Virus record (IMG/VR): IMGVR_UViG_3300028580_000125
Coordinates: 1-64,000 of that record
DNA: 64,000 bases
Direction: 5' to 3' (one strand)
Origin: a virus
Lineage: Duplodnaviria; Caudoviricetes
Shown here in pieces: positions 1 through 19,481 of the stretch (positions within the stretch are counted from its first letter, which is position 1; each line of letters opens with the position of its first letter). The notes under the pieces were generated by a model, which did no database searches, was not told the origin of the DNA, and was given only the letters and a program-made list of their open reading frames with translations. The position numbers and the translations under genes were made by a program.

Positions 1-1074
1 TTAATTTTTGTACAGGTCATTTTGTACAGGTTTCGGCGGGGACGGAAGGGCTTCTACGGCAGCCTTTTTCTGAGAGTCACGCACATGCTGATAGTGCTTC
101 CACACCATGGACGGACTACTGTGTCCCATGAGCGTGGCCACCGTCCCCACATCTACATCGGCGGCGATAGCCTCTGTCGCAAATCCATGACGTAGGTCAT
201 ATGGACGTATGTGCCGCGTGATGCCAGCGATTCTTAGGGCTCCTTTCCATGCCGTTTTTATACTTTTGACCGGCTTCCCTCTGTACGTAATAACGTGCTC
301 CATCCCTTTCTCTGCGTCAGCTGCCAGCCATTGCCGCAATATGGGCAACAGATCGTCTCGGATAGGAACTTCCCGCCACATCTCTGTAGCACCTTTATTG
401 GCGTTGGGAACTCGGACCACTCCGCTGATCAGGTCAACGTCTTTCCAGCACAGCTTAAGCAGCTCGCTTTGCCCCACCCGCATGCCGAAGTGGTAGCCAA
501 GGATGATCACCCTGCGCATGTGCTCAGGAGCCACCCTGTACAGCATATTCACTTCTTCTTGTGTCGGCGGGACATATCTGGCATGTTGAGACTGCGGAAG
601 GACTGGAAACAACGGCAACGATTCAAGGCTCCCGTTTCGATACGCCCAACGCAAAACTGCCTTTACGATACCCATTTTCCTGCGGATGGTTGCCCACTTA
701 TTGCCTGTAGTGGTCAGCCATCCTTTCATTTCCTGTAAGCACTGCACATCAAGCTGCGGCAACTCGTAATCACCGAATCGTGAGAGTATGCCTTTCACAG
801 CAAGCAACGTCCTTTCAAGATTCTGGACTTCCATCTGCTTTTCTTTGAGATAGAGGTACAGGACTGATTCAAGCGTATTGGCTTTGACCTGCTGAGGCTC
901 TTCTGTCCTACGGAAGGAATCACGCTCGTATTTCAGTTGGTACTTGATGAAAGCATCGTGCTTTTCTGCATCCTCCGCTATGCTGAAAGCCTTGCTTTCA
1001 CTTTTTCCCGTAAAGGGATTCGTCCAATAAACAACAAAGGGGCTTTTACGCCCCGTCTGTATCCTGATTGCCAT
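1..1074 (-). CDS. int: Tyrosine recombinase / phage integrase
   Basis: Catalytic motifs GMRVGQSE (R), YDLRHGFAT (HxxR position, Y in place of H), LMGHSS and HYQH (Y). Likely ATG at 1074 (MAIRIQ), although the ORF extends to 1152. Confidence 0.93.
   Translation of the reverse strand: MAIRIQTGRKSPFVVYWTNPFTGKSESKAFSIAEDAEKHDAFIKYQLKYERDSFRRTEEPQQVKANTLESVLYLYLKEKQMEVQNLERTLLAVKGILSRFGDYELPQLDVQCLQEMKGWLTTTGNKWATIRRKMGIVKAVLRWAYRNGSLESLPLFPVLPQSQHARYVPPTQEEVNMLYRVAPEHMRRVIILGYHFGMRVGQSELLKLCWKDVDLISGVVRVPNANKGATEMWREVPIRDDLLPILRQWLAADAEKGMEHVITYRGKPVKSIKTAWKGALRIAGITRHIRPYDLRHGFATEAIAADVDVGTVATLMGHSSPSMVWKHYQHVRDSQKKAAVEALPSPPKPVQNDLYKN
5..31 (+). repeat. Two TTTTGTACAGGT direct repeats, putative integrase arm-type sites (left end)
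   Basis: Copies at 6-17 and 20-31; the same motif recurs three times at 57315-57370 beside the att site. Confidence 0.75.
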
Positions 1075-1093
1075 AATCACACACCTTTGGCAG

Positions 1094-1402
1094 CTATTGG
1101 ACAGGCTGCCCCCTGCTGATCTCAGCAAAAACCTCTGCGGCAGATCGTCCAAGAAGGGGACGCTTCCTTGGCAGTCTGCTTGAGTTTTTTGCCTGTCTGT
1201 TTTGGGCTTCGGCGTGCAATGTGTCCGCTACTTGGATAACAGCCGATGTTCTCCACCGCAAGCCGTTGCCCCGGCCACGCCCCCTGTCAACTGGCTTAAC
1301 GCCGTACTTGTCCAGCGTTGCCCTGGCTTTTGACTCGCTCATGTTCAGGGCTGGCCCTATTTCTTCCTTAGTCAAAAAAAGTGGTGTAATCGGCGAGGCC
1401 AT
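1094..1402 (-). CDS. Putative excisionase / HTH DNA-binding protein
   Basis: Small basic protein directly upstream of int with a MerR/Xis-like pattern (LFLTKEEIGPALNMSESKAR...LRWR). Confidence 0.6.
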   Translation of the reverse strand: MASPITPLFLTKEEIGPALNMSESKARATLDKYGVKPVDRGRGRGNGLRWRTSAVIQVADTLHAEAQNRQAKNSSRLPRKRPLLGRSAAEVFAEISRGQPVQ

Positions 1403-1629
1403 TATGCTACCTCCTCATAATTCTCTATGGCTGCATCGGGGTGCTTCTTTTTCCATCTGAAATTCCACGACCTGATAGCCGCAGACCTTGAGCGATTATT
1501 TCCAACCCAGTATGTGACGGGCACGCACCGGCATCCTGTCCTGAAGCATCCGATTGAGATCAAACTGCCTGTCCCTGCGACGGTCTTTGCAGGGCGACCA
1601 CATTCTGCGCACGGTTCAAGGTCTGGCAT
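1402..1629 (-). CDS. Lar-family (restriction alleviation) zinc-ribbon protein
   Basis: LEPCAECG...C...C...AAIRSWN pattern typical of Lar-like proteins; overlaps both neighbouring genes. Confidence 0.6.
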   Translation of the reverse strand: MPDLEPCAECGRPAKTVAGTGSLISIGCFRTGCRCVPVTYWVGNNRSRSAAIRSWNFRWKKKHPDAAIENYEEVA

Positions 1630-2518
1630 GGTCCTTCTCCTGACATCGGTAATCTTTCCAAGGAACTGTTTTAAAAATTGCCTTGTGATTAACCCACCTA
1701 GCGAATCTGCGCTGTTCTACATCTGGTGGAAAGTTTGTCGTGAAATCACGGTATGGCTGCGCAAATGGGGTTACATTAAGCTCTTTTAGAAACAAAACTC
1801 GTTCCAGGGCATCCTCAACATCCCTAACAAGCACATAGCAAAAGTATTCTCGGTAATGGCCACCGGCCGCCCTGAGTAGGCGAACAGCTCTTTCGACCTC
1901 AGGCATTTGTGATTTCTGGTCGCAAGCCAACCTGATAAAACGTGTCCAACGAAGTGCTGCAAGGCGCCGAGCTATGGCATCATCTATCAGGCGAGCGTCT
2001 AATCCTTGGTTGAAGTCTACGCGCAGATCCATTCTGGCCATCTTTTCAATTTGAGCTATTCCGTGTGGGTGTGCGAGCACGTTGTTGTCCATCAGCTTCA
2101 CATCACGATGGCGGCAGAATTCTGAAATGTCGGCATTGGCCCGTATGGCCCCCTCTTTTGCTGGCACAACGCACCATGGGCAAGATCGGATGCAGCCGCG
2201 CGTAAGAAATCCTAGGCTATAGTTGACGCCGTAGAACCCATAGTCTGGGCAGGTATGCTCTATCTCATCAGGCAAGTTTTTATTGGCACCATATCCTGTT
2301 CCACCTTTAACTGCCGATCTAGGCAAATACCTATCATCGGATGTCCAAGTGAAAACTTTGCTGGAATATATAACGCACTCCTTCGATCCTTTCGCACCGT
2401 GCAACATTGGCATGAATCGCTCTACTTTATCCCCTTTAGATTTGTGCCATGCCGCAAGTTTCATTAGGGCCAAATTTGGGAACTGCGTGCAGTCGGCATC
2501 ATGAAGTGCGACATTCAC
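1616..2518 (-). CDS. Phage radical SAM protein
   Basis: CxxxCxxC motif in TRGCIRSCPWC; FPNLALMKL N-terminus; DFNQGLDARL. Confidence 0.85.
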   Translation of the reverse strand: MNVALHDADCTQFPNLALMKLAAWHKSKGDKVERFMPMLHGAKGSKECVIYSSKVFTWTSDDRYLPRSAVKGGTGYGANKNLPDEIEHTCPDYGFYGVNYSLGFLTRGCIRSCPWCVVPAKEGAIRANADISEFCRHRDVKLMDNNVLAHPHGIAQIEKMARMDLRVDFNQGLDARLIDDAIARRLAALRWTRFIRLACDQKSQMPEVERAVRLLRAAGGHYREYFCYVLVRDVEDALERVLFLKELNVTPFAQPYRDFTTNFPPDVEQRRFARWVNHKAIFKTVPWKDYRCQEKDHARP

Positions 2519-2934
2519 TTTGCCTTACCCCAGAAAGCCCTGCGCGCATCAGCTATCAGGCCGTCAAAGACATCCTCGGCAGCAGCAACGCTGTCTTCGT
2601 TCGAGCCGTATTGCTCGTAGGCTTGTTGAGCTTCCCGCATGTGCTTGGCGGCATCCATAACCCGTTGGAGGGCCAGCGCCGCCCCGGCCGCCTGAAACTG
2701 CCAGGCGATCAGGGCGGTGCGCTGTGAATCTTCGAATGGGCGATTATTCCATGCAGATATGCTTTTGGCGCTTGCCTCCACCTGCGTCTTTCCGGACCGT
2801 AAAAAATAGGACTCAGCAATATCATCATTTACACATTGGCAAGAGACTGAAGCTAAGTATTCGCTTTCAGTATACCGACTTTCATTCAATGTGGGCATGA
2901 CCCCGCAAAACGGGCACGGTTTCAGTTCTGGCAT
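2515..2934 (-). CDS. Lar-family restriction alleviation protein with C-terminal extension
   Basis: MPELKPCPFCG...CQC...AWNNR signature; ATG at 2934. Confidence 0.7.
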   Translation of the reverse strand: MPELKPCPFCGVMPTLNESRYTESEYLASVSCQCVNDDIAESYFLRSGKTQVEASAKSISAWNNRPFEDSQRTALIAWQFQAAGAALALQRVMDAAKHMREAQQAYEQYGSNEDSVAAAEDVFDGLIADARRAFWGKAK

Positions 2935-2936
2935 GG

Positions 2937-3353
2937 CTATTTGCCCTCCACTGACTTTCGGGCGGCTTCTTTCCATTCTTCTGCCGTAGCTTTGTTGCAG
3001 TGGATAATTGTACACACCGCAACGCTACATCTAGGATTCGGCCCTTTGTCCTCGCAGTGTTCTGCACACCGCCCCGCCAGCCAATCCACCATCTTTTGCA
3101 GCCGTGCGTTCTCGGCCTCGGCATCAGCCAGTTTCGCCTTGAGGTCGGGAATGATTTCGGTGCAAGCCTGATACACCGCAGAGAAATTTGCGCGAGTTTC
3201 TTGGACTGAGCCATCAAGCAATAACTCGGTTACCTCCAAGGCATTGAGCAGCCTCAGAATACGTTCATCTTCTTCGCTGGGCGTGCCGCACTCGTCTGAG
3301 GCTTCAAAGCGCCACAGGTCGCGTTCTTCCTTGGATATTTCAACGGTGCTCAT
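2937..3353 (-). CDS. Hypothetical phage protein (coiled coil, Cys-rich C-terminus)
   Basis: 138-aa ORF packed in the operon; start overlaps the upstream stop; AAGGAG RBS. Confidence 0.6.
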   Translation of the reverse strand: MSTVEISKEERDLWRFEASDECGTPSEEDERILRLLNALEVTELLLDGSVQETRANFSAVYQACTEIIPDLKAKLADAEAENARLQKMVDWLAGRCAEHCEDKGPNPRCSVAVCTIIHCNKATAEEWKEAARKSVEGK

Positions 3354-3616
3354 CTGCTGGACTCCTTCGGCCTTAGCTTAAAAACCACACTGCACCCGTC
3401 CGCACGCCGCCAAATACGACCATCATTTTTTACTACCCCATACGACATGCACCGAACGGGATTGTTGTTCTTCTGGCATTCAGGACGCCAATCGCAATGG
3501 CGGCATATATTTTCGTTGCTGTCTGGACCAACAACGCTGGATTTAAGCACGGCGTAGTGCCCCGGTGGAGCGTCGGCTGAATTGAGAGTCGGTATGAGGT
3601 TTAGCTGCTCAGGCAT
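3350..3616 (-). CDS. Hypothetical Cys-rich phage protein
   Basis: CRHC...C...C...RADGCSVVFK; overlaps both neighbours; GGAGG RBS. Confidence 0.55.
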   Translation of the reverse strand: MPEQLNLIPTLNSADAPPGHYAVLKSSVVGPDSNENICRHCDWRPECQKNNNPVRCMSYGVVKNDGRIWRRADGCSVVFKLRPKESSR

Positions 3617-4043
3617 TGCATGCCTCCTGTGGCCACGAAACTCTGTGGGGGTAATCGAATTGCCAGAATTTCAGTTTGCCAATGGCGGGCACTGGCGGCA
3701 GGGGCAGAACCTTACCGATCATCCACCAGAACTTTGAGCCTTGGTCAGCCCATTCTGATGGAGCGTTGTCAGTGCTCGACGCCAAGCAGCCGGTAAATTG
3801 CACAGCCCCAATGATGCAGCCGCAAAGTGTCGTGGGGTGCAAAATTTCCATGGGCCAGCCGCGCGCAACCATTTCAAGTTGGGCTGTATGGGGATCAAAC
3901 GCGGGTTTCGCGCTTGAATGGATCAGTACGGTGCAGTTGCGAAACTTGTCCGGCAGCCGCCAATCCCTGTTTTCTATGTCCTTGTGTCCGCTGACGATCA
4001 GCGCCGCCCACGGCTGACGTATTGTGATGACCGGAAAAATCAT
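3609..4043 (-). CDS. ASCH domain protein
   Basis: ITIRQPWAALIVSGHKDIENRDW (GxKxxExR), GCIIGAV and GKLKFW motifs; ATG at 4043 overlaps the upstream stop. Confidence 0.88.
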   Translation of the reverse strand: MIFPVITIRQPWAALIVSGHKDIENRDWRLPDKFRNCTVLIHSSAKPAFDPHTAQLEMVARGWPMEILHPTTLCGCIIGAVQFTGCLASSTDNAPSEWADQGSKFWWMIGKVLPLPPVPAIGKLKFWQFDYPHRVSWPQEACNA

Positions 4044-5038
4044 TGCGGCACCTCGTCCCAGGTTCGCTTGTCGATGCTGCGGCCAGAGTTGGCCTTGCCG
4101 CATTTGAACATGCAGCCCATATGGCCAGGGGTGGGGCGTGGCGTTTCTGGGTGAGGCTTCTTTGTGCCGCACAAGCAATCAGGCGCCCATTCTCCCCAGG
4201 ACTTGAAGAAGAACGGAACAGTTGCCTCCTGGCACTGGTCGCGCAGGCTGCGCACCCAGTCGGGGTTCATGGGCCGCGCGCCCGAGCCGGTTTCGCCACC
4301 AGCAATGACCCAGCCAATGCCGGAAAGGTCTACGTTCCCGAGGTCGGAAAGCAGCGGCTCAAAAGATACAAAGCGCAGGGCGGCGGGGATTTTGCGCAGC
4401 ACGTCAAGTTTCCACAGTTCATCCCGGTTGCAGACCGTGACACCCAGCCACAGGTTCGGCAGAGGCCACAGATAATCTTGCCGCAGGTTGTCTCGGGTGC
4501 TGGTCATTTCCTGCGGGATGGTCTCAGCGTCGGCGTATTCTTCAAATGTCTCACTGTCGCCATCGCCAACAATTATCCAGCCATTGCCAGCCCTACCCCA
4601 CCTTCGCAGCAGTGTATTAGGGCCAGCGGCGAAATATTCTGCCATGGCCTGCGCTCGCTTTGTGAGAATGATGAAGGTGTGGCCGTGCCCGTTTGAAAAG
4701 ATGCAGTCGGCCATGATGGATGCAAAGAGCTCGTCGCGGTTCTCGGCTGGATAGTTCGGATGGAAAATGTCGGTCATGCTGCCGACAAACACCCTCTTGC
4801 CTTTGCCGGGCACCCGATGCGGGTACATCTTTTCGGAAAAGTTAGAATTGATTTTCCCCGTCCACTTGCCCCTTCCATCGACAACGCCTGCATAGACCTT
4901 TGCGGCTACAGGATTTTTTGACAGGCGGTGCGCAAACTTTTCAGCGTAGCAGTGGTCGCAGCCAGGGGAGCAGTGCGAGCAGCCCACGGCGGTGTTGGTG
5001 GTCGCGTCTGCCCATTCAATGCGCGTTGTTGTAGCCAT
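4040..5038 (-). CDS. Phage Gp37/Gp68 (DUF5131) radical-SAM-like protein
   Basis: TRIEWADAT.N...GCSHCSPGCDHCYAE, VFVGSMTDIFH, RFVSFEPLL, WVIAGGETG, VPFFFKSWG. Confidence 0.9.
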   Translation of the reverse strand: MATTTRIEWADATTNTAVGCSHCSPGCDHCYAEKFAHRLSKNPVAAKVYAGVVDGRGKWTGKINSNFSEKMYPHRVPGKGKRVFVGSMTDIFHPNYPAENRDELFASIMADCIFSNGHGHTFIILTKRAQAMAEYFAAGPNTLLRRWGRAGNGWIIVGDGDSETFEEYADAETIPQEMTSTRDNLRQDYLWPLPNLWLGVTVCNRDELWKLDVLRKIPAALRFVSFEPLLSDLGNVDLSGIGWVIAGGETGSGARPMNPDWVRSLRDQCQEATVPFFFKSWGEWAPDCLCGTKKPHPETPRPTPGHMGCMFKCGKANSGRSIDKRTWDEVPQ

Positions 5039-5062
5039 GTTGCGTTCTCCTCATAAAAAGCG

Positions 5063-5086
5063 ACGGCTCCGCTTTCGCGGAGCCGT
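5063..5086 (-). promoter_or_regulatory. DGR target hairpin downstream of VR2
   Basis: Minus strand ACGGCTCCGC-GAAA-GCGGAGCCGT: 10-bp stem with GRNA loop, 26 nt after the target-2 stop codon. Confidence 0.85.
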
Positions 5087-5112
5087 TCAGGAAACAAGGG
5101 CCAGGTTCCAGG

Positions 5113-6111
5113 CTACACTTTTGCGAGGCGGCACCCGATGACCGTGCCCGAGGAGGAAGCAACGAGGTTGAAGGTGCAGGAGAACAGGCCTGCGGCTGAA
5201 CCATCGACCCAGTCGCCGCCGGAGTAGAACACGTTCTTTTCGTCGGGCCATGAGCGCCACGTCTTGTCAGGGGCAAAGGCCGCAGAGGGCTCACCTTCGA
5301 TGTCAGCGTCGGCAGGAATGAAGCAGTCAGACAGGGAAAAGAATTTTCCGTCAGCAAAGGCAATGTCCGTTGGCCAGCCGGTGTCGCTGGAAGCGTGGAC
5401 GCCAGTGTTGATGTATTCACCAAGCCCCTTGGCATCCTCGATATGGATGACGTGCTGTTCATCGAGGATGATGCCGTCAATCATGGTTATGGAGTTGCCC
5501 CAGAGGTCATAAATTCCGCGCCAGCACAGCCCGCTTTCGCCGGTCTTTTTGAGACAATCGCACTGGACGTTGCCCATGCCGTATGCGGCCTGACTGTCTG
5601 TTGTGCCGGCCTCGATAATCATAAGGCGCTGAACGGCGGCCAGCATGCGGATGTTCTGCATACGCCATCCCAGGGCATCATCGCGGTTCCTGGCTGCGCA
5701 AGCGGCGCGCATGTCGAAGAAATCATTATTGCCAGCAGGCATTACGCCAGGCAGAGAGCATATTTCACCTTCCGCGCCGAAGCTTCCTTCGTAAGCACCG
5801 ATCCAGAAGGCCGCTGTAGGCATTCCGACGTACATGAACGCAGAGTGCAGGTGAAAGCCGTCGGCGGGCTCGGGGCTGATCCAATAGCGGTATGCGGTTT
5901 TGCCATTCTCGCTGGAACGCTCCTGGCGCACATAGAACGCCGGAATGCAAACCATGTGCTGCCCGTCTACGATTGCAGGCTTAATGCCCGCATAGGTGGG
6001 GTGCTTTTCGAAGAAGTCGCTGCTCACTTCAACGGGGTTTCCTGCCGCGTCAATTCTGGTGCATTTGCGGTCGCCATTTCCGATTTCTATGCTGATGCCT
6101 ATGATGCTCAT
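5113..6111 (-). CDS. Second (remote) DGR target: stand-alone Mtd/C-type-lectin-fold-like domain protein
   Basis: Paralogous to the C-terminal head of the tail fibre at 34540-36432 (HPTYAGIK..IVDGQ.M..IP.FYV, ISP..ADGFH.H.AFM). Ends in a VR. No collagen stalk and no obvious signal peptide. Confidence 0.92.
   Translation of the reverse strand: MSIIGISIEIGNGDRKCTRIDAAGNPVEVSSDFFEKHPTYAGIKPAIVDGQHMVCIPAFYVRQERSSENGKTAYRYWISPEPADGFHLHSAFMYVGMPTAAFWIGAYEGSFGAEGEICSLPGVMPAGNNDFFDMRAACAARNRDDALGWRMQNIRMLAAVQRLMIIEAGTTDSQAAYGMGNVQCDCLKKTGESGLCWRGIYDLWGNSITMIDGIILDEQHVIHIEDAKGLGEYINTGVHASSDTGWPTDIAFADGKFFSLSDCFIPADADIEGEPSAAFAPDKTWRSWPDEKNVFYSGGDWVDGSAAGLFSCTFNLVASSSGTVIGCRLAKV
5120..5223 (-). repeat. 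DGR variable repeat VR2
   Basis: 104-nt ungapped match to TR 37943-38046 with 13 mismatches, all at TR adenines. Confidence 0.95.
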
Positions 6112-6207
6112 TGTCCCTCCAAGGTGTTTTGTGTGGTAATCTTGAGCGAGGCTCCCCCGCCCTATTCCGCTCCCGTCCGTAGACGGGCGCGGTAAGGAAG
6201 TGGGGAT

Positions 6208-6579
6208 CTATTTATGCGTTGTTCCTTCAACGCCGCGCGCCTGTCTGTCCTTGGTGCGGTGGTCAAGCCAGTGCAAAGCTTCTTCAATCTTGGTCAGGGC
6301 CAATTCATTCTCACGGCAGGCAAAGTCGCCAGCCTGAAATGATTGCAGCCGATTTCGGCAAATTTGGAGTAAATCTTCCATGAAAATGCCGTTCACGCCG
6401 TTCTCAGCCACTGGTCCTTTCTGGAATTTGACCAAAGCATACGGTGATTCTTTCGTTGTGGCTGTATCGTCTGGATTGGCGCTCGTTACCTGATAATTGT
6501 GGTACGCGCCTCCTGCGCCGGGATCGTCCAGAACCTGTATGATGGTGAACCTGTGCTGTCCTGCTTCGAGTATGTGCAT
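6208..6579 (-). CDS. tad1: Tad1-like anti-defence sponge protein (Thoeris/CBASS signal sequestration)
   Basis: GAGGAYHNY, VKFQKG and DLLQICRNRLQSFQAGDFACRENELALTKIEEALHWLDHR..DRQARGVEGT match the recalled Tad1 sequence pattern along its length; 123 aa. Confidence 0.82.
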   Translation of the reverse strand: MHILEAGQHRFTIIQVLDDPGAGGAYHNYQVTSANPDDTATTKESPYALVKFQKGPVAENGVNGIFMEDLLQICRNRLQSFQAGDFACRENELALTKIEEALHWLDHRTKDRQARGVEGTTHK

Positions 6580-6596
6580 TCGATTCCTCTTTGCGT

Positions 6597-7181
6597 TTAT
6601 GCGACTGTGGGGCCGCTTGAAACCAGGCGGCGGTAGATTTCCATGGTCATGCGGATGTCTGTCATTGCGTCGTGGGCCTCGCCCTCGGGCTGAATACCGA
6701 AATGGGCGGCAACGGTTTCAAGCCGGAAGTTCGGGAGCTCATGACGCACGCCCATGAGGGCATGACCGGCCATGACGGACACGTCGATGCTGGGCCACCA
6801 GACGTAAGAGCCAAAGTACGGGTCGCCGCACTTTTTGAAGAAGGAGTGCAAGAAATTGAGGTCGAAAATGCCGTTGTAGCCCGCGAAGAAGCACTTATCG
6901 CGCTTGTCGTAGCTGTCAACGTGAGCAGAGAGCATTTGAACGAAGGAAACGCGCGCGTCATGCGGTGGCATGAACCCGGCGAGCTCCTCCCGCGTGAAGC
7001 CGTTCACGGCGAGTGCCGTGTCTTCGATAACGTCTTCAGCGAAAGGCCGAATTTTGTAGTCGAAGCTGCTGATTTCCTGACCGTTTATTTCAAGTACGCC
7101 AGCCAGTTGAATGATGCCGTTCTTGCCGGGGTCTGTGCCGGTTGTCTCTGTGTCTACCCAGAGTATCTTCTTGTCCCTCAT
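6597..7181 (-). CDS. DEDDh 3'-5' exonuclease (DnaQ-like)
   Basis: ExoI WVDTETTG, ExoII AGYNGIFDLNFL, ExoIII AHDAMTD. Confidence 0.9.
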   Translation of the reverse strand: MRDKKILWVDTETTGTDPGKNGIIQLAGVLEINGQEISSFDYKIRPFAEDVIEDTALAVNGFTREELAGFMPPHDARVSFVQMLSAHVDSYDKRDKCFFAGYNGIFDLNFLHSFFKKCGDPYFGSYVWWPSIDVSVMAGHALMGVRHELPNFRLETVAAHFGIQPEGEAHDAMTDIRMTMEIYRRLVSSGPTVA

Positions 7182-7190
7182 GCCGGGCCC

Positions 7191-7388
7191 CTACAGTTTT
7201 TTGAATTGTTCGCACCCGCAGATGGGGCACTTTTTCTTTTTCGAAACCGTCCCGCACTTTTTGCAGGCGCGGGACGGTTTGCCGTCACTGAGCCGTTCGC
7301 CCTTGCATGATGCGTAGATGTGCGCAAAATTCTTTACTTTACGCTTCCCACGCCACTCTGGGCGATTCGGATCATCGAAGCCGCTCAT
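7191..7388 (-). CDS. Small zinc-ribbon protein
   Basis: CKKC...CPICGC; start overlaps the upstream stop. Confidence 0.5.
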   Translation of the reverse strand: MSGFDDPNRPEWRGKRKVKNFAHIYASCKGERLSDGKPSRACKKCGTVSKKKKCPICGCEQFKKL

Positions 7389-8824
7389 TGGATGGCGGCT
7401 CCAGAAGCGGGCTGATGGTCGCCGCCCATGAGCGGGGGCTGTTCTGCCGATTCTTCTTCGACGGATTCCCCGGCCTGAAGTTCTTCTGCCGGTGTTTCAT
7501 CGATTTCAGTGGGTTCAGGGGTTGCAACAGGCTTGTTCCCGGCAGATATCCAGTTGTCGTCTTCGGCGCTGGCTTCTGCCTGGGGGTTAAGCATGCAGGT
7601 GTTGCAAGGGGGCATATTGACGGCCATGCTCTTGTAGTTGCAGGTGGAGCACTCACGGCGAGGCGTCCAGTTGTCCACGCCGCCCTCAACGGTCTGTGAG
7701 CAGTTGGCGCATTCATCAGCTTGGGTGCCGTCGTCAGCGTTGGGCATGTGTCCGCAGTCAACGCAGGTGTGCCCCCAGGTCTGAGGCGTGGGCTCCGTCG
7801 TCCCGATCCTGTTGCGCGGGTCTTCACCGAGCGGTGCGGAATGCCCCTTGATGGAAGGCGGGCCGTCAAACAGCGTCGGGCGGCGTTCGTCTGCAGTCAT
7901 GGGGCGGCGCATAATTTCTTCTGCGGCATCGTCGGCAGTGACGTACACGACTTCGCCGGAATCAAAGTCCTGGTAGACGTCACATTCAACGTCCTGTGGC
8001 TCAGTCTTGCCGAAGCGGAACTCCTCGGCAGCCCTACTCAAGGCCTCCTGGTGTTCCTCGATGCGGTTTTTAAAGCTCTTGCGCACGCTGGCGAGTTCAT
8101 CTTCAAGCTGGTCGATCTTAGCCTGCGCAGCAGCCATTTTGCTACCAAGCTCCAGTTTGTCCTCGTCGGACAAGGGGAAAGCCTTTGTGCAGGTTTCTTT
8201 CTTGAGCCAGTGGACATCCCGGCCACGCAAGCACACCGGCAGCGTTTCACCGGGATCACATTCTTCAGAGGCTTCGGGGCCATCGTCAGAGGTGCAGGCG
8301 CTTTCGTCCGGCACATCGTCAGGGCAAAGGTCTGTTGGCTCCACCGCGCTGGCAAGAACGTTGCACAAAACGGTGTCGCCCACGTTGATTTCGCTTTCGT
8401 CGTGGGTAAAGGAAGCCGTGGGAATGTCGGCGGTGTTGGCGTGGCGGTCTTCGACAGTGGCCGTTTCGCCATCTTCCGAAAAGGCGTGGATGGTGAGAGT
8501 GATCGCCATTGTAGCGTTGGGATCAGGCTCAGGATCGGGCGCAGTTTCCAGCGGCTGTTCCTGCTGGCTGCCGCCACTTTCGGCAATCGCATACCCCTGC
8601 CCATCGACAAGGCCGTTGTCCTCTGCCAGCCAATCGGGAAGCGTCACTTCGACATTCGTGTCATCGCGTTCGCCGACGTATTCAATCTGGCTCTTGGGCA
8701 GCCAGACTTTATCGCCAGCACACATGAGCATGATAGCGTCCTCGGTCTCCTGTACGATATCGCCGCAGACCGTATACATTTCGGGTTCAGGGCGCGGGAG
8801 CGCCTTGGCTTTCTTCTTGGGCAT
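7385..8824 (-). CDS. Hypothetical acidic phage protein with coiled coil and Cys-rich C-terminus
   Basis: AAGGAG RBS before ATG 8824 (MPKKKAK); VWLPKSQI...TLPDWLA N-domain; CxxC pairs. Confidence 0.7.
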   Translation of the reverse strand: MPKKKAKALPRPEPEMYTVCGDIVQETEDAIMLMCAGDKVWLPKSQIEYVGERDDTNVEVTLPDWLAEDNGLVDGQGYAIAESGGSQQEQPLETAPDPEPDPNATMAITLTIHAFSEDGETATVEDRHANTADIPTASFTHDESEINVGDTVLCNVLASAVEPTDLCPDDVPDESACTSDDGPEASEECDPGETLPVCLRGRDVHWLKKETCTKAFPLSDEDKLELGSKMAAAQAKIDQLEDELASVRKSFKNRIEEHQEALSRAAEEFRFGKTEPQDVECDVYQDFDSGEVVYVTADDAAEEIMRRPMTADERRPTLFDGPPSIKGHSAPLGEDPRNRIGTTEPTPQTWGHTCVDCGHMPNADDGTQADECANCSQTVEGGVDNWTPRRECSTCNYKSMAVNMPPCNTCMLNPQAEASAEDDNWISAGNKPVATPEPTEIDETPAEELQAGESVEEESAEQPPLMGGDHQPASGAAIQ

Positions 8825-8907
8825 GTTGTGCTCCTTAAAAATGGTTGCGCCCGCGACGCCATAAGAACGCCGCGGGCACTGTGGAGGGTGTGTGAGTTGT
8901 AGGGAAA

Positions 8908-9825
8908 CTATTGGCGGGCGCGGGCACTGAATGTCGTGCACAGGCCCCTCAGCTTTGCCAATGCAAGGCGCACTTCACCATCATTGGCAGGGCTGTATGT
9001 GATGATGATGGACATGGTTTTGTCCGGCCCTGCTTCAGCCGCAGGGGCCGTGGTAACGGCGGGAGCCGCAGACGTTTGGGGAGCAACCCACCGTTTGGCT
9101 GCTGGGGCTGGTACGCTGCGTTCTTCCTGGCGCGCCAGTGCCCGTTGTGCTGCGCTGGTAATGTCCTTGCACACATCATCGAGGGGCGTTGACAAACTGG
9201 TGTGCCATTGGGTCATAAACTGCGCGACGGACAGTTCAAGATGGTATTCAGCGTTTGTCGCCTTAACCGCCTGTTCAATGGCCGAGGCCCGCTCTACTCT
9301 CGCCTGCTCTGCCTGCTGCTGTAACCGCAGCGATTCGATGCGCTGGTCAATGATGCCCTGGACAGCTTCGCGGATGGATTTCAGTGTTGTTGATTTGAGC
9401 AGCCACTTGTCCTGTATGGGAATTGCAAAGGCTTGGACTTCGCCCTTCCGCTTGTCCAGTTCTTCCGAAATGGCGTTCTGTACGACAGTGCGCTTATTCT
9501 CGCGCTCCTGCGAGACGAAATGCTGAACCTGATCGCTGAGGGACTTGTATGTGGCGTCAAAAATGGCCGTAACCTTTTTTATCTGCCCTTCAAACTCCTT
9601 AAGCGGCGCGCTGAGCTTTTTGACTGTCTCCTTGCGAGAATTATCCACGCTGATTTTGGCTTTATTCAAATCAGACATGCACACGCGAATTTCAGAAACC
9701 TGATCTTCGGTAATAACAAGCCCTTGGTATTTTCTCGTCATACCCTGCGCCCAAGCCACCAAGCCTGCGTAATCGAAACTTACGGCAGGCAGGCTTGTTT
9801 GCAGCTTCATACGCGAGTCTTCCAT
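8908..9825 (-). CDS. DUF1351-like protein
   Basis: LNKAK..VDNSRKETVKKLSAPLKEFE coiled-coil pattern; lies in the recombination module. Confidence 0.7.
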   Translation of the reverse strand: MEDSRMKLQTSLPAVSFDYAGLVAWAQGMTRKYQGLVITEDQVSEIRVCMSDLNKAKISVDNSRKETVKKLSAPLKEFEGQIKKVTAIFDATYKSLSDQVQHFVSQERENKRTVVQNAISEELDKRKGEVQAFAIPIQDKWLLKSTTLKSIREAVQGIIDQRIESLRLQQQAEQARVERASAIEQAVKATNAEYHLELSVAQFMTQWHTSLSTPLDDVCKDITSAAQRALARQEERSVPAPAAKRWVAPQTSAAPAVTTAPAAEAGPDKTMSIIITYSPANDGEVRLALAKLRGLCTTFSARARQ

Positions 9826-9828
9826 GGC

Positions 9829-10980
9829 TTACCCCTCCTCAGGAAGATCAACGGCCCATTCAGGGCAGCGGGTGCGCTGATTGCACTTTTCGCAATCGGC
9901 TTCCGTTACCATCGTGGCTCCATCCGTGCGCGGGCATGGGAAAGCATTGGGGTTCTGGCTGTTCTGCTGCTGGGGTTGCGGCGCTGGTTCCGTGGGAACC
10001 GCACGTTCTTCTTTCTGAACAGGGGGCTGTGCCTGAGCAGGTGCTTTCTCGCGTACATGGACAGGTTCCTTCGGCGTAATCTCGCCGGTATCCATGTCTA
10101 TGTGTTCTCCGGGGGCAGCCTGGGGCAGCGTCGCCTTAATGTCGTCCATCGTCATTGGCTTAGGTTCTTCATCCAAGCCAAACGATCCTGGCGACATTTC
10201 AGACAGGTCGATGGTGTCGTGGATTTCTTCGGCGGTCTGAATGCCCATGAGCAGTTCAGGGGCGTAGAGCTTGCCAAAGAATGAGGCGGCGCGGTACCTG
10301 AGCATGACTTCCGGCATGGTCTTCCACTTGGAACCGTCCTTCCCATACCAGCCTTCAAGGACTGCCATTTCGATACTGACGGGAGGCGAAGAAATGCGCT
10401 CGCCGGTGGCCTTTTCAATGGCCCAAGCCACGCACTTCATATTACGAATGCGAGCATTCTTGGACACGTCCTTGCGGAAGTTGCGGCCATTCTGTGGGTT
10501 CTGCTCCCACACTTTTTCTGACCACTCAAAGTTCTTCTCCCCAAGGTCTTCGATCTCGAACCGCAAAGGGCTGAACTTGCCGCAAGCGTTAATGGCCGCC
10601 GTAATGAACTGCGAAGACCAGCCTGGCCGCCCCTCAACGATGTACAGATTCTGCATGATCATGAGCGGGTCGGCACCAAGGCGCTGTGACATGTTCAAGG
10701 CCAGCACACAGTTGGAAATGGCGTTGGGGTTTTGGGTTGGCTGCCCTTCCTGGTTGCCGTACTTGTCGCGCTTGACCCACAGGGATTGGTATTGTTTCGG
10801 TACCAGCGTCGAGTTGGAGAGCAGGTGTGCCGCTCTTTGCATGAGGTCAAGCCCGCCAGCCGTGAAAAAACCAATCTGGGTTTCAGCAGGGAGGCTGCGA
10901 GTTGATGCTTTGAGTTCTGCGAGGCTTGTTGGATTAACGCCGGGGCGCGGCGCTTGGGGTGCGGTTGCGGCCTGAGTCAT
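9829..10980 (-). CDS. Phage single-strand annealing recombinase (RecT-like)
   Basis: LSNSTLVPKQYQ, NCVLALNMSQRLGADPLMIMQNLYIVEGRPGWSS, SKWKTMPEVMLRYRA; adjacent to an exonuclease. Confidence 0.75.
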   Translation of the reverse strand: MTQAATAPQAPRPGVNPTSLAELKASTRSLPAETQIGFFTAGGLDLMQRAAHLLSNSTLVPKQYQSLWVKRDKYGNQEGQPTQNPNAISNCVLALNMSQRLGADPLMIMQNLYIVEGRPGWSSQFITAAINACGKFSPLRFEIEDLGEKNFEWSEKVWEQNPQNGRNFRKDVSKNARIRNMKCVAWAIEKATGERISSPPVSIEMAVLEGWYGKDGSKWKTMPEVMLRYRAASFFGKLYAPELLMGIQTAEEIHDTIDLSEMSPGSFGLDEEPKPMTMDDIKATLPQAAPGEHIDMDTGEITPKEPVHVREKAPAQAQPPVQKEERAVPTEPAPQPQQQNSQNPNAFPCPRTDGATMVTEADCEKCNQRTRCPEWAVDLPEEG

Positions 10981-10985
10981 GGTAG

Positions 10986-11786
10986 TTACCTCCTCCACCG
11001 GCACACATGATAAGCCGGGCAGTATTTTTCTCCGCAGATTTGCGATTTGGGGTTTCCGTAAAACAGGCCGCTGTGCAGCATGTTAGAAGCGATGGTGAGC
11101 AGCCCTGGACCTTCATCGCCCCCTACAAGCAGGGAGCGTGCGCCAGATATCTCCCCGATCCCTGCCCTTCGGCCTTTGTCGGTTTTTGCCACCTGTAGGC
11201 CAAAAATCTTTGCAGGGGCATCAATGGGCAGCCCTGTTGCCCTGGAAGCCATGAGCTCGTACACGCCCATCTGGGCGGCATGGCCCTTGGTATTAACCTT
11301 GCCATCGGCGGCTACAGCGCTCTTACCTGTCTTTATATCGCCAATGCCCAAGCAACCGCTCGTCTCGTAGATACGATCCAGAGTCCCGGTAAGGACCAGG
11401 GCAACGTCTTCTATGGGAAGATCGTCGCAGGTTGCCTCAACGGCAATGTAGGACTGCAGGGGGGCTATTTGCTCGCAGTACATCTTGTGCAGGGGTAAGG
11501 CGATGCTCTCCGCTTCGCGCGGGGAAGATTCCCCCCAATCCACCTCTTCATCGGGGTGGTGTATGGCGTCCACTACGGCACCAGCAGCTTCATCTGGCGT
11601 AAGGGGATTACCTTCAATGATCCGCTGGTCGAAAAGCGCGGCGCCGGCATGAACTGCAGTGCCAAGACGCGCGGCGTCAGATGCGGGCAAGTGCAACCCT
11701 TTGACGTATTTCGCCTCCCAGCGCGCCGGGCAATCAAAAAGCTCTGCCAGCGACGATGCGCGAATTTTGATGGCCTCAGCCTTCAT
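10986..11786 (-). CDS. PD-(D/E)XK RecB/Cas4-like exonuclease
   Basis: CPARW, GTAVH, LTGTLD...DIKTG, QMGVY, and C-terminal CGEKYCPAYHVC Fe-S-type cysteines. Confidence 0.85.
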   Translation of the reverse strand: MKAEAIKIRASSLAELFDCPARWEAKYVKGLHLPASDAARLGTAVHAGAALFDQRIIEGNPLTPDEAAGAVVDAIHHPDEEVDWGESSPREAESIALPLHKMYCEQIAPLQSYIAVEATCDDLPIEDVALVLTGTLDRIYETSGCLGIGDIKTGKSAVAADGKVNTKGHAAQMGVYELMASRATGLPIDAPAKIFGLQVAKTDKGRRAGIGEISGARSLLVGGDEGPGLLTIASNMLHSGLFYGNPKSQICGEKYCPAYHVCRWRR

Positions 11787-12001
11787 TGTTCCCTCCCACG
11801 GCTAAATATTTCAATAAGAAGCCCTGACGGGCACCAAGACCTGATCTTGTCCATGATCTGCGCCCGCGTTCCGTTGAGGATTACGAGGCTTCCTTTGCGG
11901 TAAATGTACATCCTCATGTCATCCCCCCATGCGCTCGCCGATTGCGATGACGAGCGGAAGGGACATGACGCCAAACAGAACGATCAGAATGTCGCGCGCG
12001 C

Positions 12002-12190
12002 TCATTGTGTGGACTCCTTCTCGCAATCCTGGTCTGCCAATGGGCATTGATCTGGATCGCAAAGTTCTCCATTAAGTTTGCAACGGTATCCCGGTTCGTC
12101 GCCGGGGTAGTATGCCCCCTGGCAACACCCTGGGATGTCGTCACCAAAAGACCTGTGCCCACGGCTGTATTCTCCCAAGTGCTCGCACAT
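12002..12190 (-). CDS. Small Cys-rich hypothetical protein
   Basis: GGAG RBS before ATG 12190; six Cys; in the operon directly after the tRNA. Confidence 0.45.
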   Translation of the reverse strand: MCEHLGEYSRGHRSFGDDIPGCCQGAYYPGDEPGYRCKLNGELCDPDQCPLADQDCEKESTQ

Positions 12191-12210
12191 GGCAGACTCC
12201 ATTTGAAAAT

Positions 12211-12287
12211 TGGTCGGGGCGACTGGATTCGAACCAGCGACCTTCGGCTCCCAAAGCCGCTGCGCTACCTGGCTGCGCTACGCCCCG
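12211..12287 (-). tRNA. tRNA-Pro (TGG), phage-encoded
   Basis: 77-nt cloverleaf CGGGGCGTAGCGCAGCCAGGTAGCGCAGCGGCTTTGGGAGCCGAAGGTCGCTGGTTCGAATCCAGTCGCCCCGACCA; encoded CCA; G27-A43 mismatch. Confidence 0.93.
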
Positions 12288-12520
12288 TCGCTGAAAATGG
12301 AAAAGGCCGGGGGAAGGGAAACACCCCCGGCCTTCGATTGCCCCCATGGCAGTTGTTCTGTTCAGCGGCTATCCACCGGCCTTAACGGTGTGCCTCACTG
12401 CTACAGAGCCATGGGAGGATTGTTCCCTCGATTGCCGAGGGCCGCGGATGACCATTGATTCCTCCCTGACGGGTTCACCCGGTATGTGCATATGTGAAAT
12501 GCCTGAGCATGATGCCCTGG

Positions 12521-12772
12521 CTAGGTGCCTTCTGAAAGCGTGAACCTCGACACATTCACTGGCCAGCCAGGTTCACCATCTCTGCTGTCTGTGGAATGCA
12601 GGCTGGCAAGAAGCAGTGTTTGCTCAGTCGCAGTCATCTGGTGCGGAGCTTCAGGAAGAAGCAAGTCTGTGGTTTTGTACCATCGCCCATTGCTTCCCTT
12701 GAAAACCGCCCTTCCCCAAAAGTCTTTGCCGACAAATTTTAGGGATACAGGCGAGGATTCGTTGGTGCTCAT
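12521..12772 (-). CDS. Hypothetical phage protein
   Basis: MSTNESS...LKFVGKDFWGRAVFK...DGEPGWPV; GGAGG RBS; start overlaps the upstream stop. Confidence 0.6.
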   Translation of the reverse strand: MSTNESSPVSLKFVGKDFWGRAVFKGSNGRWYKTTDLLLPEAPHQMTATEQTLLLASLHSTDSRDGEPGWPVNVSRFTLSEGT

Positions 12773-12990
12773 TTGCCCTCCCGGCATTTGATTTTGACCT
12801 TTTTCTTGAGCAAGCCGTTGCTCTTGGCAAAGGCCATCTTGAACCGTGCCTCCTGATCTGCGGCCACGCTGAGACATTCTTCCATGGTTCTGACCGGGCG
12901 CGCACCTTCAAGGAAGGTGGCTTGCCGTTCGACATGCAAGGACGTGTTGTTCGACAGGTAAAACGTGATCAGTAGGAAGAATGTTTTCAT
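12769..12990 (-). CDS. Hypothetical protein with hydrophobic N-terminus
   Basis: GGAGG RBS before ATG 12990 (MKTFFLLITFYL...TMEEC...KIKC). Confidence 0.5.
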   Translation of the reverse strand: MKTFFLLITFYLSNNTSLHVERQATFLEGARPVRTMEECLSVAADQEARFKMAFAKSNGLLKKKVKIKCREGK

Positions 12991-13071
12991 GGACCCTCCA
13001 AAATTGAAAAAGGCCGCTCCCCGATGGAACGGCCCCAGCGACGCGACATAGCTACAAAACGCGGCGCAAAT

Positions 13072-13183
13072 TGATGGCAGGCCCCGGATTCGCACCGGGC
13101 GCTGGCCTCTACGGATTGTCTGGTCATGCGCTTGTTGCCAGAGTCCTCAGCTTTCCCCACGTTCGCCGTGGGCCGCACCTGCC
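13072..13183 (-). ncRNA. tRNA-like RNA (canonical acceptor stem and T arm, expanded middle)
   Basis: 7-bp acceptor GGCAGGT/GCCTGCC followed by A-TCA; T arm CCCGG-TGCGAAT-CCGGG; 77-nt interior with two further hairpins. Confidence 0.5.
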
Positions 13184-13256
13184 GTAAACATCTCCATCAC
13201 CGGCAGCGACCATTTGCAGGTAGTCCCGAAATTGGTCGCTGCCGGTGGGGAAAAAT

Positions 13257-13463
13257 TCATTCAGTAAGCCCAATCGCGGTTTTGAGGTCGCGCTTTTCAG
13301 GGAGCATAAGTTCAAGGCCGGGAATAACCCACGTGTTGAGCCATACGCGCAAATGGTGGCTATTCATTGATTCAAACACTTCTCGCGAAACCTGACTGCT
13401 GTCTTCACAGCGCAACCTTATGATCAAGTTACGAACCACTTGTTCCTCTTGTGCATTAAGCAT
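13257..13463 (-). CDS. Hypothetical protein, first gene of the leftward operon
   Basis: GGAGG RBS before ATG 13463. Confidence 0.5.
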   Translation of the reverse strand: MLNAQEEQVVRNLIIRLRCEDSSQVSREVFESMNSHHLRVWLNTWVIPGLELMLPEKRDLKTAIGLTE

Positions 13464-13842
13464 GACTGCCTCCACCTTTTAGAAGTTCCTTCATTGCCGC
13501 CAAGGCTCTCGTGCGGCCCTGGCGGTATATAAAAGAAATTCGTTGTGCCTGAATAATTGCCGAACTCGGTTGCAGGTTGTCACCCTGGGGGTTAGTCACC
13601 TCCCCCGAACCTCCCCGACGCCGTTAGATCTTCCGCGACGGATCTACAGAACCCGCCCAAGTGGGCATTTTTGACAACTTTTGAATGGCCTCTATTCGAG
13701 CTTACGGCTGGGCCTCTTGCTCCCAGCACCCGACTTGTGGCCGGGCCTTCATGCCGCCAAGTTGCTGCCGATTGAGAATTCGGTTCGCTACTCTGTGCCG
13801 AAACACGCGTTCGCAACCTCTTCCTCGTTGGCAAAATCAAAA

Positions 13843-13892
13843 TAAGTCAATTTGACTTACTATGCAACAAAAAAATAAGTCAATTTGACCTA
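13843..13892. promoter_or_regulatory. Left operator: two TAAGTCAATTTGAC(T/C)TA palindromes
   Basis: 8-1-8 inverted repeats at 13843-13859 and 13876-13892 in an AT-rich region heading the leftward operon. Confidence 0.85.
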
Positions 13893-14210
13893 TACTTTTT
13901 TGCTCGATAGAATCCTGGAAAATTAAAAGCCCCCAGGCGGGGGCAAGGAGGGCGACGGGTATGAGCGGAATTGACAGAGCTAATGAGATCGAAGGCGGGA
14001 TTGGATCAGAAGGAGCGCAGGAGGGAAATATGAGGAGGGTGGAGTCTGCTATCAAGGAAGCCGTGATCTCCGCATACTGCAAGGAGAATGAGTTTCCTAT
14101 CCAATTATTTGATGGGATAGAACCTGCCGAGAGTATTCAATTAAAAAGCTACGCACGGCGCATCGCCGAAGTTTTGACTGGAATTATCATGAAAAGAAAG
14201 GGTTCACAGC

Positions 14211-14408
14211 TTATCTGCTTTTGGACTCGTCAAGGATGCCCCGAACTTCCTCCATCGCAGGAGTGAGGCAGGAAATTATTGCGTCAGCCGCTTCCTGAGC
14301 ATCCAACTCTGGGTTCATCTTCTGAATCAAGGCGGTGAACCCAGCAAAAATTATTGTATTGGTTACTTCGAGTTGGTCCTTAATTTCCTTAAACTGTGCA
14401 TCTGTCAT
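14211..14408 (-). CDS. Small hypothetical protein (immunity-region accessory gene)
   Basis: GGAG RBS before ATG 14408; co-oriented with cI. Confidence 0.5.
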   Translation of the reverse strand: MTDAQFKEIKDQLEVTNTIIFAGFTALIQKMNPELDAQEAADAIISCLTPAMEEVRGILDESKSR

Positions 14409-14431
14409 ATCTTTTCTCCAATAAATAAAAA

Positions 14432-15295
14432 TCACCCCAGCAGCGCCAGCACAGAGTTCTCATACTCTTGGATTCTGTCCGTCTTGGGGATTTCAGGAGG
14501 CGTAATCTGCTGCAACTTTTCTCCGTCTTCAGAGTAGTCTGGCGCACGCAAATAATACAATTGAGACACAACCGACAGCGGGTCCTGGATGGATTGAGGC
14601 CTTAAACTGTTTTCCCAATTTACTGCAATGACATTCAATTTTTTTATTGTTTCATTATCAAGCCTAGATGAAACCATCTTCAACGCCTGCTGAACATCTA
14701 ACAAAGATGATACAATACTAGATCTTTCATTATCAATTTTGGCTGACTGTTCTTTTGTTTTCATCAATCTATTAAGTTTCTTTTCGTATAAGATCGAAAG
14801 GACCTTAGTCCAGAAATACGATTTTGAAATTCCAGGCTCCGTATTTTCGTCACGATACAACAATGCAAGATAGCCCATGGCCGTTTTATCGCCCTCACTA
14901 GCCAATGAAAGAGCAAGATTTTCATACTGCTTTCTATTTTCAGCGTAATAAAGATAAAAAGATAAAAGCGCCGACCTGCCAATCCTACTTTGGCTTGAAC
15001 AGCGCACTAAAAGCTTTTCAGCCTCAATTAAATCTTTATTTAGGCATTCACCATTGGCTAGTGCACAAGCCTTATAAAATAAATATTCAAGTTCACCATA
15101 TTTTTTTACTTTCTTAAGCTCTTTTAAAGCTAAATTACATTCCTTGTCATAAATGCATCTAGGAAATGTGAGTACGGAAACTATTGGATTATTTTTATCA
15201 ACAGGAAGTGACAGCATCGCATCATCAATACAAGATGCTAAGGAAAAATTGGAAAACGAAAAAATAAATATTGCCGTTGCAACAATTATTTTCAT
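14432..15295 (-). CDS. AT-rich exported Sel1-like repeat protein, possible lipoprotein (moron)
   Basis: Signal peptide MKIIVATAIFIFSFSNFSLASC with LASC lipobox; Sel1-like helices (GECLNKDLIEAEKLL; ASEGDKTAMGYLALLY); visibly low GC. Confidence 0.65.
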   Translation of the reverse strand: MKIIVATAIFIFSFSNFSLASCIDDAMLSLPVDKNNPIVSVLTFPRCIYDKECNLALKELKKVKKYGELEYLFYKACALANGECLNKDLIEAEKLLVRCSSQSRIGRSALLSFYLYYAENRKQYENLALSLASEGDKTAMGYLALLYRDENTEPGISKSYFWTKVLSILYEKKLNRLMKTKEQSAKIDNERSSIVSSLLDVQQALKMVSSRLDNETIKKLNVIAVNWENSLRPQSIQDPLSVVSQLYYLRAPDYSEDGEKLQQITPPEIPKTDRIQEYENSVLALLG

Positions 15296-15326
15296 AGCAA
15301 CTCCAATCATTTCATAACATTATTGC

Positions 15327-15689: not shown

Positions 15690-15745
15690 ACTTTTACTCT
15701 ACGTGAGTTAGGTCAGCTTTCAATCAGTCAAACCTTGTGTTGATA

Positions 15746-15766
15746 AATAAGTCAATTTGACTTATT
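15746..15766. promoter_or_regulatory. Right operator palindrome AATAAGTCAATTTGACTTATT
   Basis: 10-1-10 inverted repeat with the same core as the left operators; lies between divergent cI and cro. Confidence 0.85.
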
Positions 15767-15787
15767 AAAAACCAAGAGGAACACACT

Positions 15788-17243: not shown

Positions 17244-17245
17244 CT

Positions 17246-19467: not shown

Positions 19468-19481
19468 CGGAAGGAGATTTC

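Follow-up and report, generated by a model that had tools for sequence, protein, structure and literature searches.

In the diversity-generating retroelement (DGR) of Bordetella phage BPP-1, which is ordered mtd-avd-TR-brt, sequence passes with adenine-specific changes from a template repeat (TR) to a variable repeat (VR) at the C-terminal end of Mtd, a late virion protein of C-type-lectin fold that has N-terminal trimerization domains and is encoded beside the cassette. In prophages that carry a DGR, a non-adjacent target often accompanies the adjacent one (Wu et al. 2018; PMC5758913), and in Quimbyvirus ("Quimbyviridae", phages of Bacteroides) the distal target is non-structural and lies among defence-related genes; its authors inferred a role in phage–host conflict without settling the function (Benler et al. 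2021; PMC8008677). The locus described here belongs to IMGVR_UViG_3300028580_000125, a 91.6-kb provirus record (Caudoviricetes; a Desulfovibrio prophage) of which bases 1–64000 were analysed (herein the window), and it has a single DGR with two targets: a collagen-like tail fibre encoded beside the cassette (target 1, T1, with repeat VR1) and a stand-alone paralogue of the fibre head encoded in a leftward, predicted early operon directly beside a Tad1 homologue (target 2, T2, with repeat VR2; Table 1). T2 is almost certainly a genuine and currently active second target of this DGR, as judged from the pattern of sequence change, and we hypothesize that its product is an early, cytoplasmic binding protein engaged in conflict; we assign this explanation as a whole a probability of roughly one half.

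The closest parallel is one of layout and gene context. As in Quimbyvirus, one DGR serves two C-type-lectin targets, one beside the tail genes and the other distal on the opposite strand, and the distal target keeps company with methylases and other defence or counter-defence genes there and with Tad1, Lar, DUF5131 and ASCH genes here (PMC8008677). Unlike Quimbyvirus, the carriers here are temperate prophages of lambdoid layout in Desulfovibrio and Proteobacteria, the second target is a full-length fibre-head paralogue, its neighbour is a bona fide Tad1 and the reverse transcriptase (RT) is a single open reading frame (ORF). A tblastn search of T2 against 50,697 phage records gave only two weak matches, neither of them in a Bacteroides phage, and blastn and tblastn searches of deposited phages found no useful relatives. 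The Faecalibacterium phage Toutatisvirus and the "tentaclin" phages likewise have one TR and two VR genes, one of them about 17 kb away, but there both targets are read as receptor-binding proteins and belong to other families (DUF6273, Ig-like; 10.1101/2024.10.15.618418; PMC10743442). The nearest structural counterpart is TaqVP of a Thermus aquaticus prophage DGR (PDB 5VF4), a monomeric, stand-alone, single-domain protein (PMC6328139) that shares with T2 the formylglycine-generating enzyme (FGE) type of C-type-lectin fold and a C-terminal VR; unlike T2, it is the sole target of its DGR and lies directly beside avd-TR-RT, and the two sequences are only 16% identical. BPP-1 in turn shares adenine-specific transfer, the C-terminal VR, the fold, the initiation of mutagenic homing (IMH) element at the end of the VR and a downstream GC-rich hairpin with a 4-nucleotide (nt) loop, whereas T2 is remote, head-only and placed in the early operon.

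The arrangement is thus of a known kind, and the hypothesis put forward in the preliminary description of this locus, which was made from the letters of the DNA, is essentially the published one; its novelty was overstated, since both non-adjacent targets (PMC5758913) and the Quimbyvirus conflict hypothesis (PMC8008677) were already in print. What the present locus adds is the host range, the phage type, the paralogy and co-divergence with the fibre head, the clean split between stand-alone and fused forms, a verified Tad1 as immediate neighbour and the fact that tractable strains in culture carry the pair. The survey of Wu et al. contains no description of gene neighbourhood, of stalk-less architecture or of early-operon placement (PMC5758913).

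The assignment of T2 to the DGR follows from searching the entire window, without gaps, for copies of the TR core (25 adenines in 104 nt). VR2 differs from the TR at 13 positions, 13/13 of them TR adenines (the hypergeometric chance that 13 random differences would all fall on adenines is 4e-10), and 10 of the 11 mismatches of VR1 likewise lie at TR adenines. The whole 91.6-kb record holds exactly three TR-like copies, namely the TR and the VRs of T1 and T2, and VR2 is separated from the TR by 32.7 kb on opposite strands. In an alignment of the three regions, VR1 and VR2 both contain the GC-rich stretch GGGTGCCGCCTCGC followed by the end AAAAGTGTAGCCTG, and the TR counterpart of this end reads AAATATAGCCCAC, which is the relation expected between IMH and IMH* in DGRs; we refer to the ends as IMH-like. 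The T2 stop codon (5113–5115) falls inside this element. A hairpin follows each target, and among relatives these hairpins are kept at a fixed distance from the stop codon in both targets although their stem sequences differ. These results bear out the anatomy given in the preliminary description, which had reported a 104-nt VR with 13 mismatches all at TR adenines, an end shared with VR1 together with a GAAA-loop hairpin of its own (here a 10-bp stem), a distance of about 33 kb from avd-TR-RT on the opposite strand, and one TR serving two targets. Terminator scoring also places the T2 hairpin among the best terminator-like sites of its region.

Variation among close relatives indicates that this target is in use. 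Clustering at 90% identity places T2 with a group of 62 sequences in all, among them proteins of Desulfovibrio sp. QI0442 and of an uncultured Desulfovibrio. Among 15 proteins of this cluster (>90% mutual identity), ordinary positions have at most two to three alleles and positions 300, 302, 303, 311, 313, 315, 316, 320, 322, 323, 324 and 325 have up to about 10 residues each; these hypervariable positions are exactly the adenine-containing TR codons (AAC, AAT, GAC, TAC, ACG, ATC). An invariant VR2 had been named in advance as the observation that would tell against the proposal, and the repeat is instead hypervariable in these 15 relatives, which argues for an active target. Comparison of the window with its relatives L007 and L006 gives a dN/dS of 0.13 at a dS of 0.19–0.47 for the T2 scaffold (296 codons) and a dN/dS of about 6.8 at a dS of 0.037 for VR2. 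The scaffold is therefore under purifying selection, and the far lower dS of VR2 is the pattern expected if the VR is repeatedly overwritten; VR2 is, on this evidence, held identical to its template at non-adenine sites and scrambled at adenine sites. Two aberrant forms were seen (P0034/P0026), one with the T2 stop codon changed to Q so that the ORF runs into DUF5131 (546 amino acids, aa) and the other with a frameshift in the VR (364 aa), in each case either a rare allele or an error of assembly.

The T2 protein consists of the fibre head alone. From residue 3 to its last residue it aligns with fibre residues 307–641 (37% identity, E 7e-59), so that it begins at the domain boundary of the fibre with no N-terminal extension, stalk, collagen or fibre repeat; comparison of T2 with T1 found no virion-attachment domain or anchor in T2, the collagen and fibre repeats being confined to T1. 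Folding of the targets with AlphaFold had been suggested at the outset, and for T2 the AlphaFold2 model (32-row alignment) is a confident single C-type-lectin domain (pLDDT 94.5, pTM 0.94) in which VR2 forms the C-terminal face and the N-terminus, far from being a signal peptide, already contributes beta-strands to the fold (pLDDT 94). The head-only architecture and the lack of an obvious signal peptide noted in the preliminary description are both in keeping with this model. Its best solved matches in Foldseek are TaqVP (E 1e-14), TvpA and Mtd, followed by formylglycine-generating enzymes, and it also matches the C-termini of many viral models annotated as "tail collar fibre" (TM-score normalized to the query, TMq, about 0.8). 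At the sequence level T2 matches the C-terminal part of the phrog_5302 "tail protein" family in PHROGs; a Pfam scan found no family in it and a sequence search of the PDB gave no match.

The two VRs carry different substitutions. Of the eight sites mutated in both, 4/8 carry the same substitution where about 2.7 would be expected by chance; the substitutions appear unrelated and VR1 and VR2 are predicted to have independent specificities, so that the two proteins would not share one. We also considered T2 as a receptor-masking decoy with the specificity of the fibre, and this idea is weakened by the same comparison.

The stand-alone form is widespread, and its genomic position is consistent. 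A word-indexed search recovered a stand-alone family of 323–341 aa at 92% down to 38% identity, and a HMMER search of 1.84 billion representatives returned 4746 relatives that comprise stand-alone proteins and fibre C-termini (in fibres of up to 1030 aa). Gene calls were examined in the surroundings of seven stand-alone homologues, which stand for six lineages other than that of the window (contigs L004/L005; L048, L049, L050; L066, L067, L068; with L006 from the window's own lineage). The stand-alone gene is always co-oriented with early genes (RecT or ERF, YqaJ, SSB, RdgC, DNA methylases, ASCH, DUF5131, PAPS reductase, CP76, Cro/CI, AlpA and integrase, all on the same strand). The start of the T2 homologue overlaps the stop codon of the upstream gene in L004 and follows it by 12 nt in L068, an operon-like spacing which suggests that in relatives T2 is translationally coupled to the genes before it. 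The L004 prophage, with a T2 that is 45% identical, also has a two-target DGR with adenine-only mismatches in both VRs, and in L008, L009, L011 and L013 the stand-alone gene, tens of kb from the RT, has a VR that departs from the TR of that record at adenines only (L011/L023 is Bordetella hinzii, also counted among the same-contig pairs below; L004, L008, L009 and L013 are IMG/VR or JGI contigs).

A survey of one genome per prokaryotic species gave 80 loci, and six-frame marker searches divide the two forms cleanly. None of the 16 stand-alone copies (318–348 aa) has avd or RT within 8 kb and 13 have early markers on the same strand, whereas 22 of the 33 fused copies (421 aa or more) have avd or RT within 2 kb downstream and none has same-strand early markers (Fisher P 5e-6 for adjacency to avd-RT and 2e-9 for early markers, values that are overstated because the lineages are not independent). 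No stand-alone copy (0/16) lies beside avd-RT or structural genes. The preliminary description had named a lack of association of homologues with early or anti-defence loci as telling against it, and the homologues are associated with early loci: fused copies sit beside avd-RT and stand-alone copies in the early recombination operon. Both forms occur on one contig in nine genomes (Bordetella hinzii LMG 13501, Castellaniella denitrificans, Pseudomonas sp. UMAB-08, Gulbenkiania mobilis, Pusillimonas noertemannii, an Alcaligenaceae isolate and three metagenome-assembled genomes), and in 9/9 of these both VRs match a single TR with mismatches mostly at adenines. In the prophage of Comamonas nitrativorans (G004; L062:14343-14444 and L018:10835-11000), two DGR RTs stand in tandem. 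The second TR lacks an adjacent VR and resembles that of the distant stand-alone early gene at 80%, only 9/20 of the mismatches falling on adenines; perhaps this cassette was dedicated to the early-operon target and is now out of step.

The pairing of fibre and stand-alone heads appears to be ancient. When 35 head domains were analysed by maximum likelihood after removal of the VR columns, the stand-alone genes formed two clades with 100% support, that of the window's T2 being shared with L004 and with five proteins from metagenomes. Fibre heads from the window and L004 group together, apart from the stand-alone genes of the same phages, and the same is true of the fibres of G002, G006 and G008. 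Because fibre and stand-alone heads group separately, the pair must predate the divergence of these phages and have been inherited as a pair; together with the purifying selection on its scaffold, T2 is best described from these comparisons as an old, selected gene, neither a fresh duplicate nor a decaying relic. The layout is therefore no oddity of Bacteroides phages, being old, selected and widespread in temperate phages of Proteobacteria and Desulfovibrionaceae.

As judged from the sequence, RNA of the TR beside avd and the RT is almost certainly copied with adenine-specific errors, and the cDNA takes the place of the terminal 104 nt in both target genes, the fibre gene and the 332-aa head paralogue, which alike carry an IMH-like end and are followed by a hairpin. 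We propose that T2 is an early product that would stay in the cytoplasm as a soluble binding protein of one domain, with a ligand-binding face that the phage can re-randomize through the DGR, and that it would bind a variable factor of the host or of a competitor instead of acting as a virion receptor-binding protein. That T2 is such an early cytoplasmic soluble binder, with a role most likely in phage–host conflict, is a tentative proposal to which we give somewhat less than even odds; it is suggested by the constant placement of the gene in the early operon, its operon-like spacing, the strand opposite to the late genes and a protein with neither stalk nor anchor nor signal peptide. A stronger version, in which T2 works as an "intracellular antibody" of the phage (a DGR-varied cytoplasmic inhibitor of which the population would always hold variants that neutralize a host defence or a competitor protein), is rather unlikely. 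Were it true, DGRs would serve to diversify counter-defence in addition to host range.

Several observations weigh against this proposal. Early timing, a cytoplasmic location and absence from virions are all read from gene order alone, and the putative anti-defence role is assigned through guilt by association, a weak argument. No conserved partner gene flanks the stand-alone family. In one genome (L012/L063, G001; GCA_900455635.1) a stand-alone early-operon homologue persists with no matching TR near the record's two RTs, and diversification is therefore not always needed. The Tad1 neighbour, confirmed below as a true homologue, adjoins a T2-type gene only in the window, L007 and L006, the closest Desulfovibrio-phage relatives, and a marker search found no Tad1 homologue near the 16 stand-alone copies of the species-wide survey. 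In one wastewater metagenome (X11), moreover, a contig joins position 6215 to 6598 through nine other letters and the Tad1 gene is gone, so that Tad1 appears to be a dispensable insert beside T2; being both lineage-specific and dispensable, its adjacency provides a weak link to anti-defence. Near the stand-alone genes of the other relatives there are methylases but no Tad1. Finally, short head-only targets directly beside avd-RT do exist (L027, 301 aa; L106, 365 aa) and Mtd is itself a separate 381-aa protein at the fibre tips, so the lack of a stalk is compatible with attachment to the virion.

These last points lend themselves to a reading of T2 as an auxiliary receptor-binding protein or adhesin, which would be made in the infected cell and would either dock non-covalently on the virion, as Mtd does on BPP-1 fibre tips, or escape when the cell lyses and bind to cell surfaces as a soluble lectin, and would supply a second, independently varied specificity. 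T2 is indeed a full fibre-head paralogue with the fold of tail-fibre C-termini, and published two-target phage DGRs are usually read as encoding two receptor-binding proteins (10.1101/2024.10.15.618418; PMC10743442). We nonetheless consider this reading unlikely, since stand-alone copies were never found in or beside the structural module and lie consistently in the early operon on the opposite strand, T2 has neither an anchor domain nor a signal peptide, and the stand-alone clades have long been kept apart from the fibres.

T2 might instead act in lysogens as a sensor for prophage exclusion or defence, binding components of superinfecting phages or mobile elements with a pre-made repertoire furnished by the DGR. 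In lambdoid phages, exclusion genes are carried in the accessory region that separates the recombination genes from the integrase; T2 lies in this region, and the spacer upstream of it is conserved. Intracellular lectin domains diversified by DGRs have been proposed to act as sensors in bacterial conflict systems (PMC10907252; PMC10053308). This account is distinctly unlikely: a sigma-70 scan of the spacer found no promoter-like site (the scan was crude, and promoters of Desulfovibrio may be of another kind), in relatives the gene touches or overlaps the one before it, as in an operon, no effector domain or partner gene accompanies it, and the operon should be repressed in lysogens. Very improbable is a role for T2 mainly as a DNA archive of a second VR, exchangeable with that of the fibre by homologous recombination through, for example, the phage's own RecT. 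VR1 and VR2 do share about 100 nt of near-identity with a flanking IMH-like end, and T2 adjoins recombination genes, but the constrained 296-codon scaffold and confident fold contradict a mere DNA store, which would have no need of an ORF kept intact across deep divergence.

The role of non-structural DGR targets was raised as a question in 2021 for uncultured gut phages. Several carriers of the T2 family are cultured (Pseudomonas sp. UMAB-08, Castellaniella denitrificans CCUG 39541, Comamonas nitrativorans CCUG 45781, Gulbenkiania mobilis DSM 18507 and Desulfovibrio sp. QI0442), and the function of T2 therefore becomes testable. If T2 is an intracellular binder, targeted hypermutation would be a counter-defence strategy of phages and the scaffold a natural cytoplasmic display platform.

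Table 1. Features of the DGR and of the T2 neighbourhood in the window (positions are those of the window)
Feature	Position	Strand	Basis or remark
Leftward operon, immunity region to integrase	1–15689	-	Gene calls, Pfam, PHROGs
Tyrosine integrase	1–1152	-	Gene annotation; start of record
Radical-SAM-like gene (phrog_9298)	1616–2518	-	PHROGs; same operon as DUF5131
DUF5131 gene, directly downstream of T2	4040–5038	-	Pfam, 253.7 bits
T2 hairpin, 10-bp GC-rich stem with GAAA loop, then CGCTTTTTAT	5063–5086	-	Stop+26; DGR target-recognition type
GC-rich stretch and IMH-like end of T2 (GGGTGCCGCCTCGC AAAAGTGTAGCCTG)	5109–5136	-	Common to VR1, unlike TR end
T2, 332-aa stand-alone DGR variable protein, C-type-lectin (FGE-type) fold, fibre-head paralogue	5113–6111	-	Alignment, AlphaFold2, Foldseek
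VR2, 104 nt	5120–5223	-	Ungapped TR comparison; variable at same codons in relatives
Tad1–T2 intergenic spacer, 96 nt	6112–6207	-	Better conserved than flanking coding DNA (window, L007, L006)
Tad1 homologue, 123 aa, immediately upstream of T2	6208–6579	-	phmmer to solved Tad1
T1, 641-aa collagen-like tail fibre with head domain	34507–36432	+	Collagen and phage-fibre repeats in N-terminal half
VR1	36322–36425	+	Ungapped TR comparison
Hairpin after VR1, 8-bp stem with GATA loop	36461–36480	+	Stop+28; stem sequence differs from T2 hairpin
avd (phrog_3206, Avd protein of DGR)	37391–37918	+	PHROGs match
TR	37943–38046	+	Ungapped window scan
DGR RT, intact (IGALTSQ, YMDD)	38208–39257	+	phrog_1423, E 2e-122

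The gene order of the window is lambdoid, with T2 in the leftward (PL-like), predicted early operon. Read leftward, this operon comprises, in order, small ORFs, tRNA-Pro, a YqaJ-like exonuclease, RecT, DUF1351, a 518-aa ORF, an RNase_T-type exonuclease, Tad1, T2, DUF5131, ASCH, Lar, the radical-SAM-like gene and the integrase. A divergent point near 15.7 kb separates it from the plus-strand genes, which from 15.8 kb onward encode a methylase, a replication organizer, terminase, portal, capsid, tail genes, the fibre, avd-TR-RT and internal virion proteins. T2 thus lies outside the virion module and is co-oriented with early recombination and anti-defence genes, as had been claimed.

The neighbours named in the preliminary description fared unevenly: DUF5131 is secure, ASCH scores just over the Pfam cut-off and one Lar-like gene is supported at 42 bits, whereas the second Lar-like gene is not, since the candidates at 2937–3353 and 3350–3616 match neither Lar nor the confirmed Lar gene. 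The label "Tad1-like" for the gene upstream of T2 was in turn strengthened by a phmmer match (E 8e-24) of residues 10–122 to residues 12–123 of solved Tad1 (7UAV/8KBG). Its Pfam score for PF24729 is 20.8 bits over only 21 matched residues, below the cut-off of 27, and the orthologue in L006 carries PF24729 without a weak mark; the product is a true Tad1 homologue and a predicted sponge for immune signals. The spacer between Tad1 and T2 holds a small hairpin (CCCGTC TACG GACGGG) and may be a regulatory element.

DUF5131 also recurs near stand-alone T2 genes of other lineages (L048, L074, L082, L092). Contigs from metatranscriptome and metagenome runs (Logan) were aligned to positions 1–20000 of the window; those of the three RNA runs were short, lay scattered across the early operon and left 5337–6670 uncovered, which is uninformative on expression. 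Inside the operon, a tRNA-Pro(TGG) gene (12211–12287, minus strand) is a place where many metatranscriptome contigs of other organisms pile up. The divergent switch region coincides with an island of low GC content (14000–16000; 42% against about 56%), whose ORFs of 292, 120 and 130 aa have no match in Pfam or PHROGs. Downstream of the internal-virion-protein genes lies a single ORF of 3647 aa (45955–56898, plus strand), and the right end of the window carries large ATPase genes (58514–60982, plus strand, AAA_25; 61195–63855, minus strand, AAA_23/SMC_N/AAA_21-like, 886 aa), which could serve in defence or replication, or could already be outside the prophage proper.

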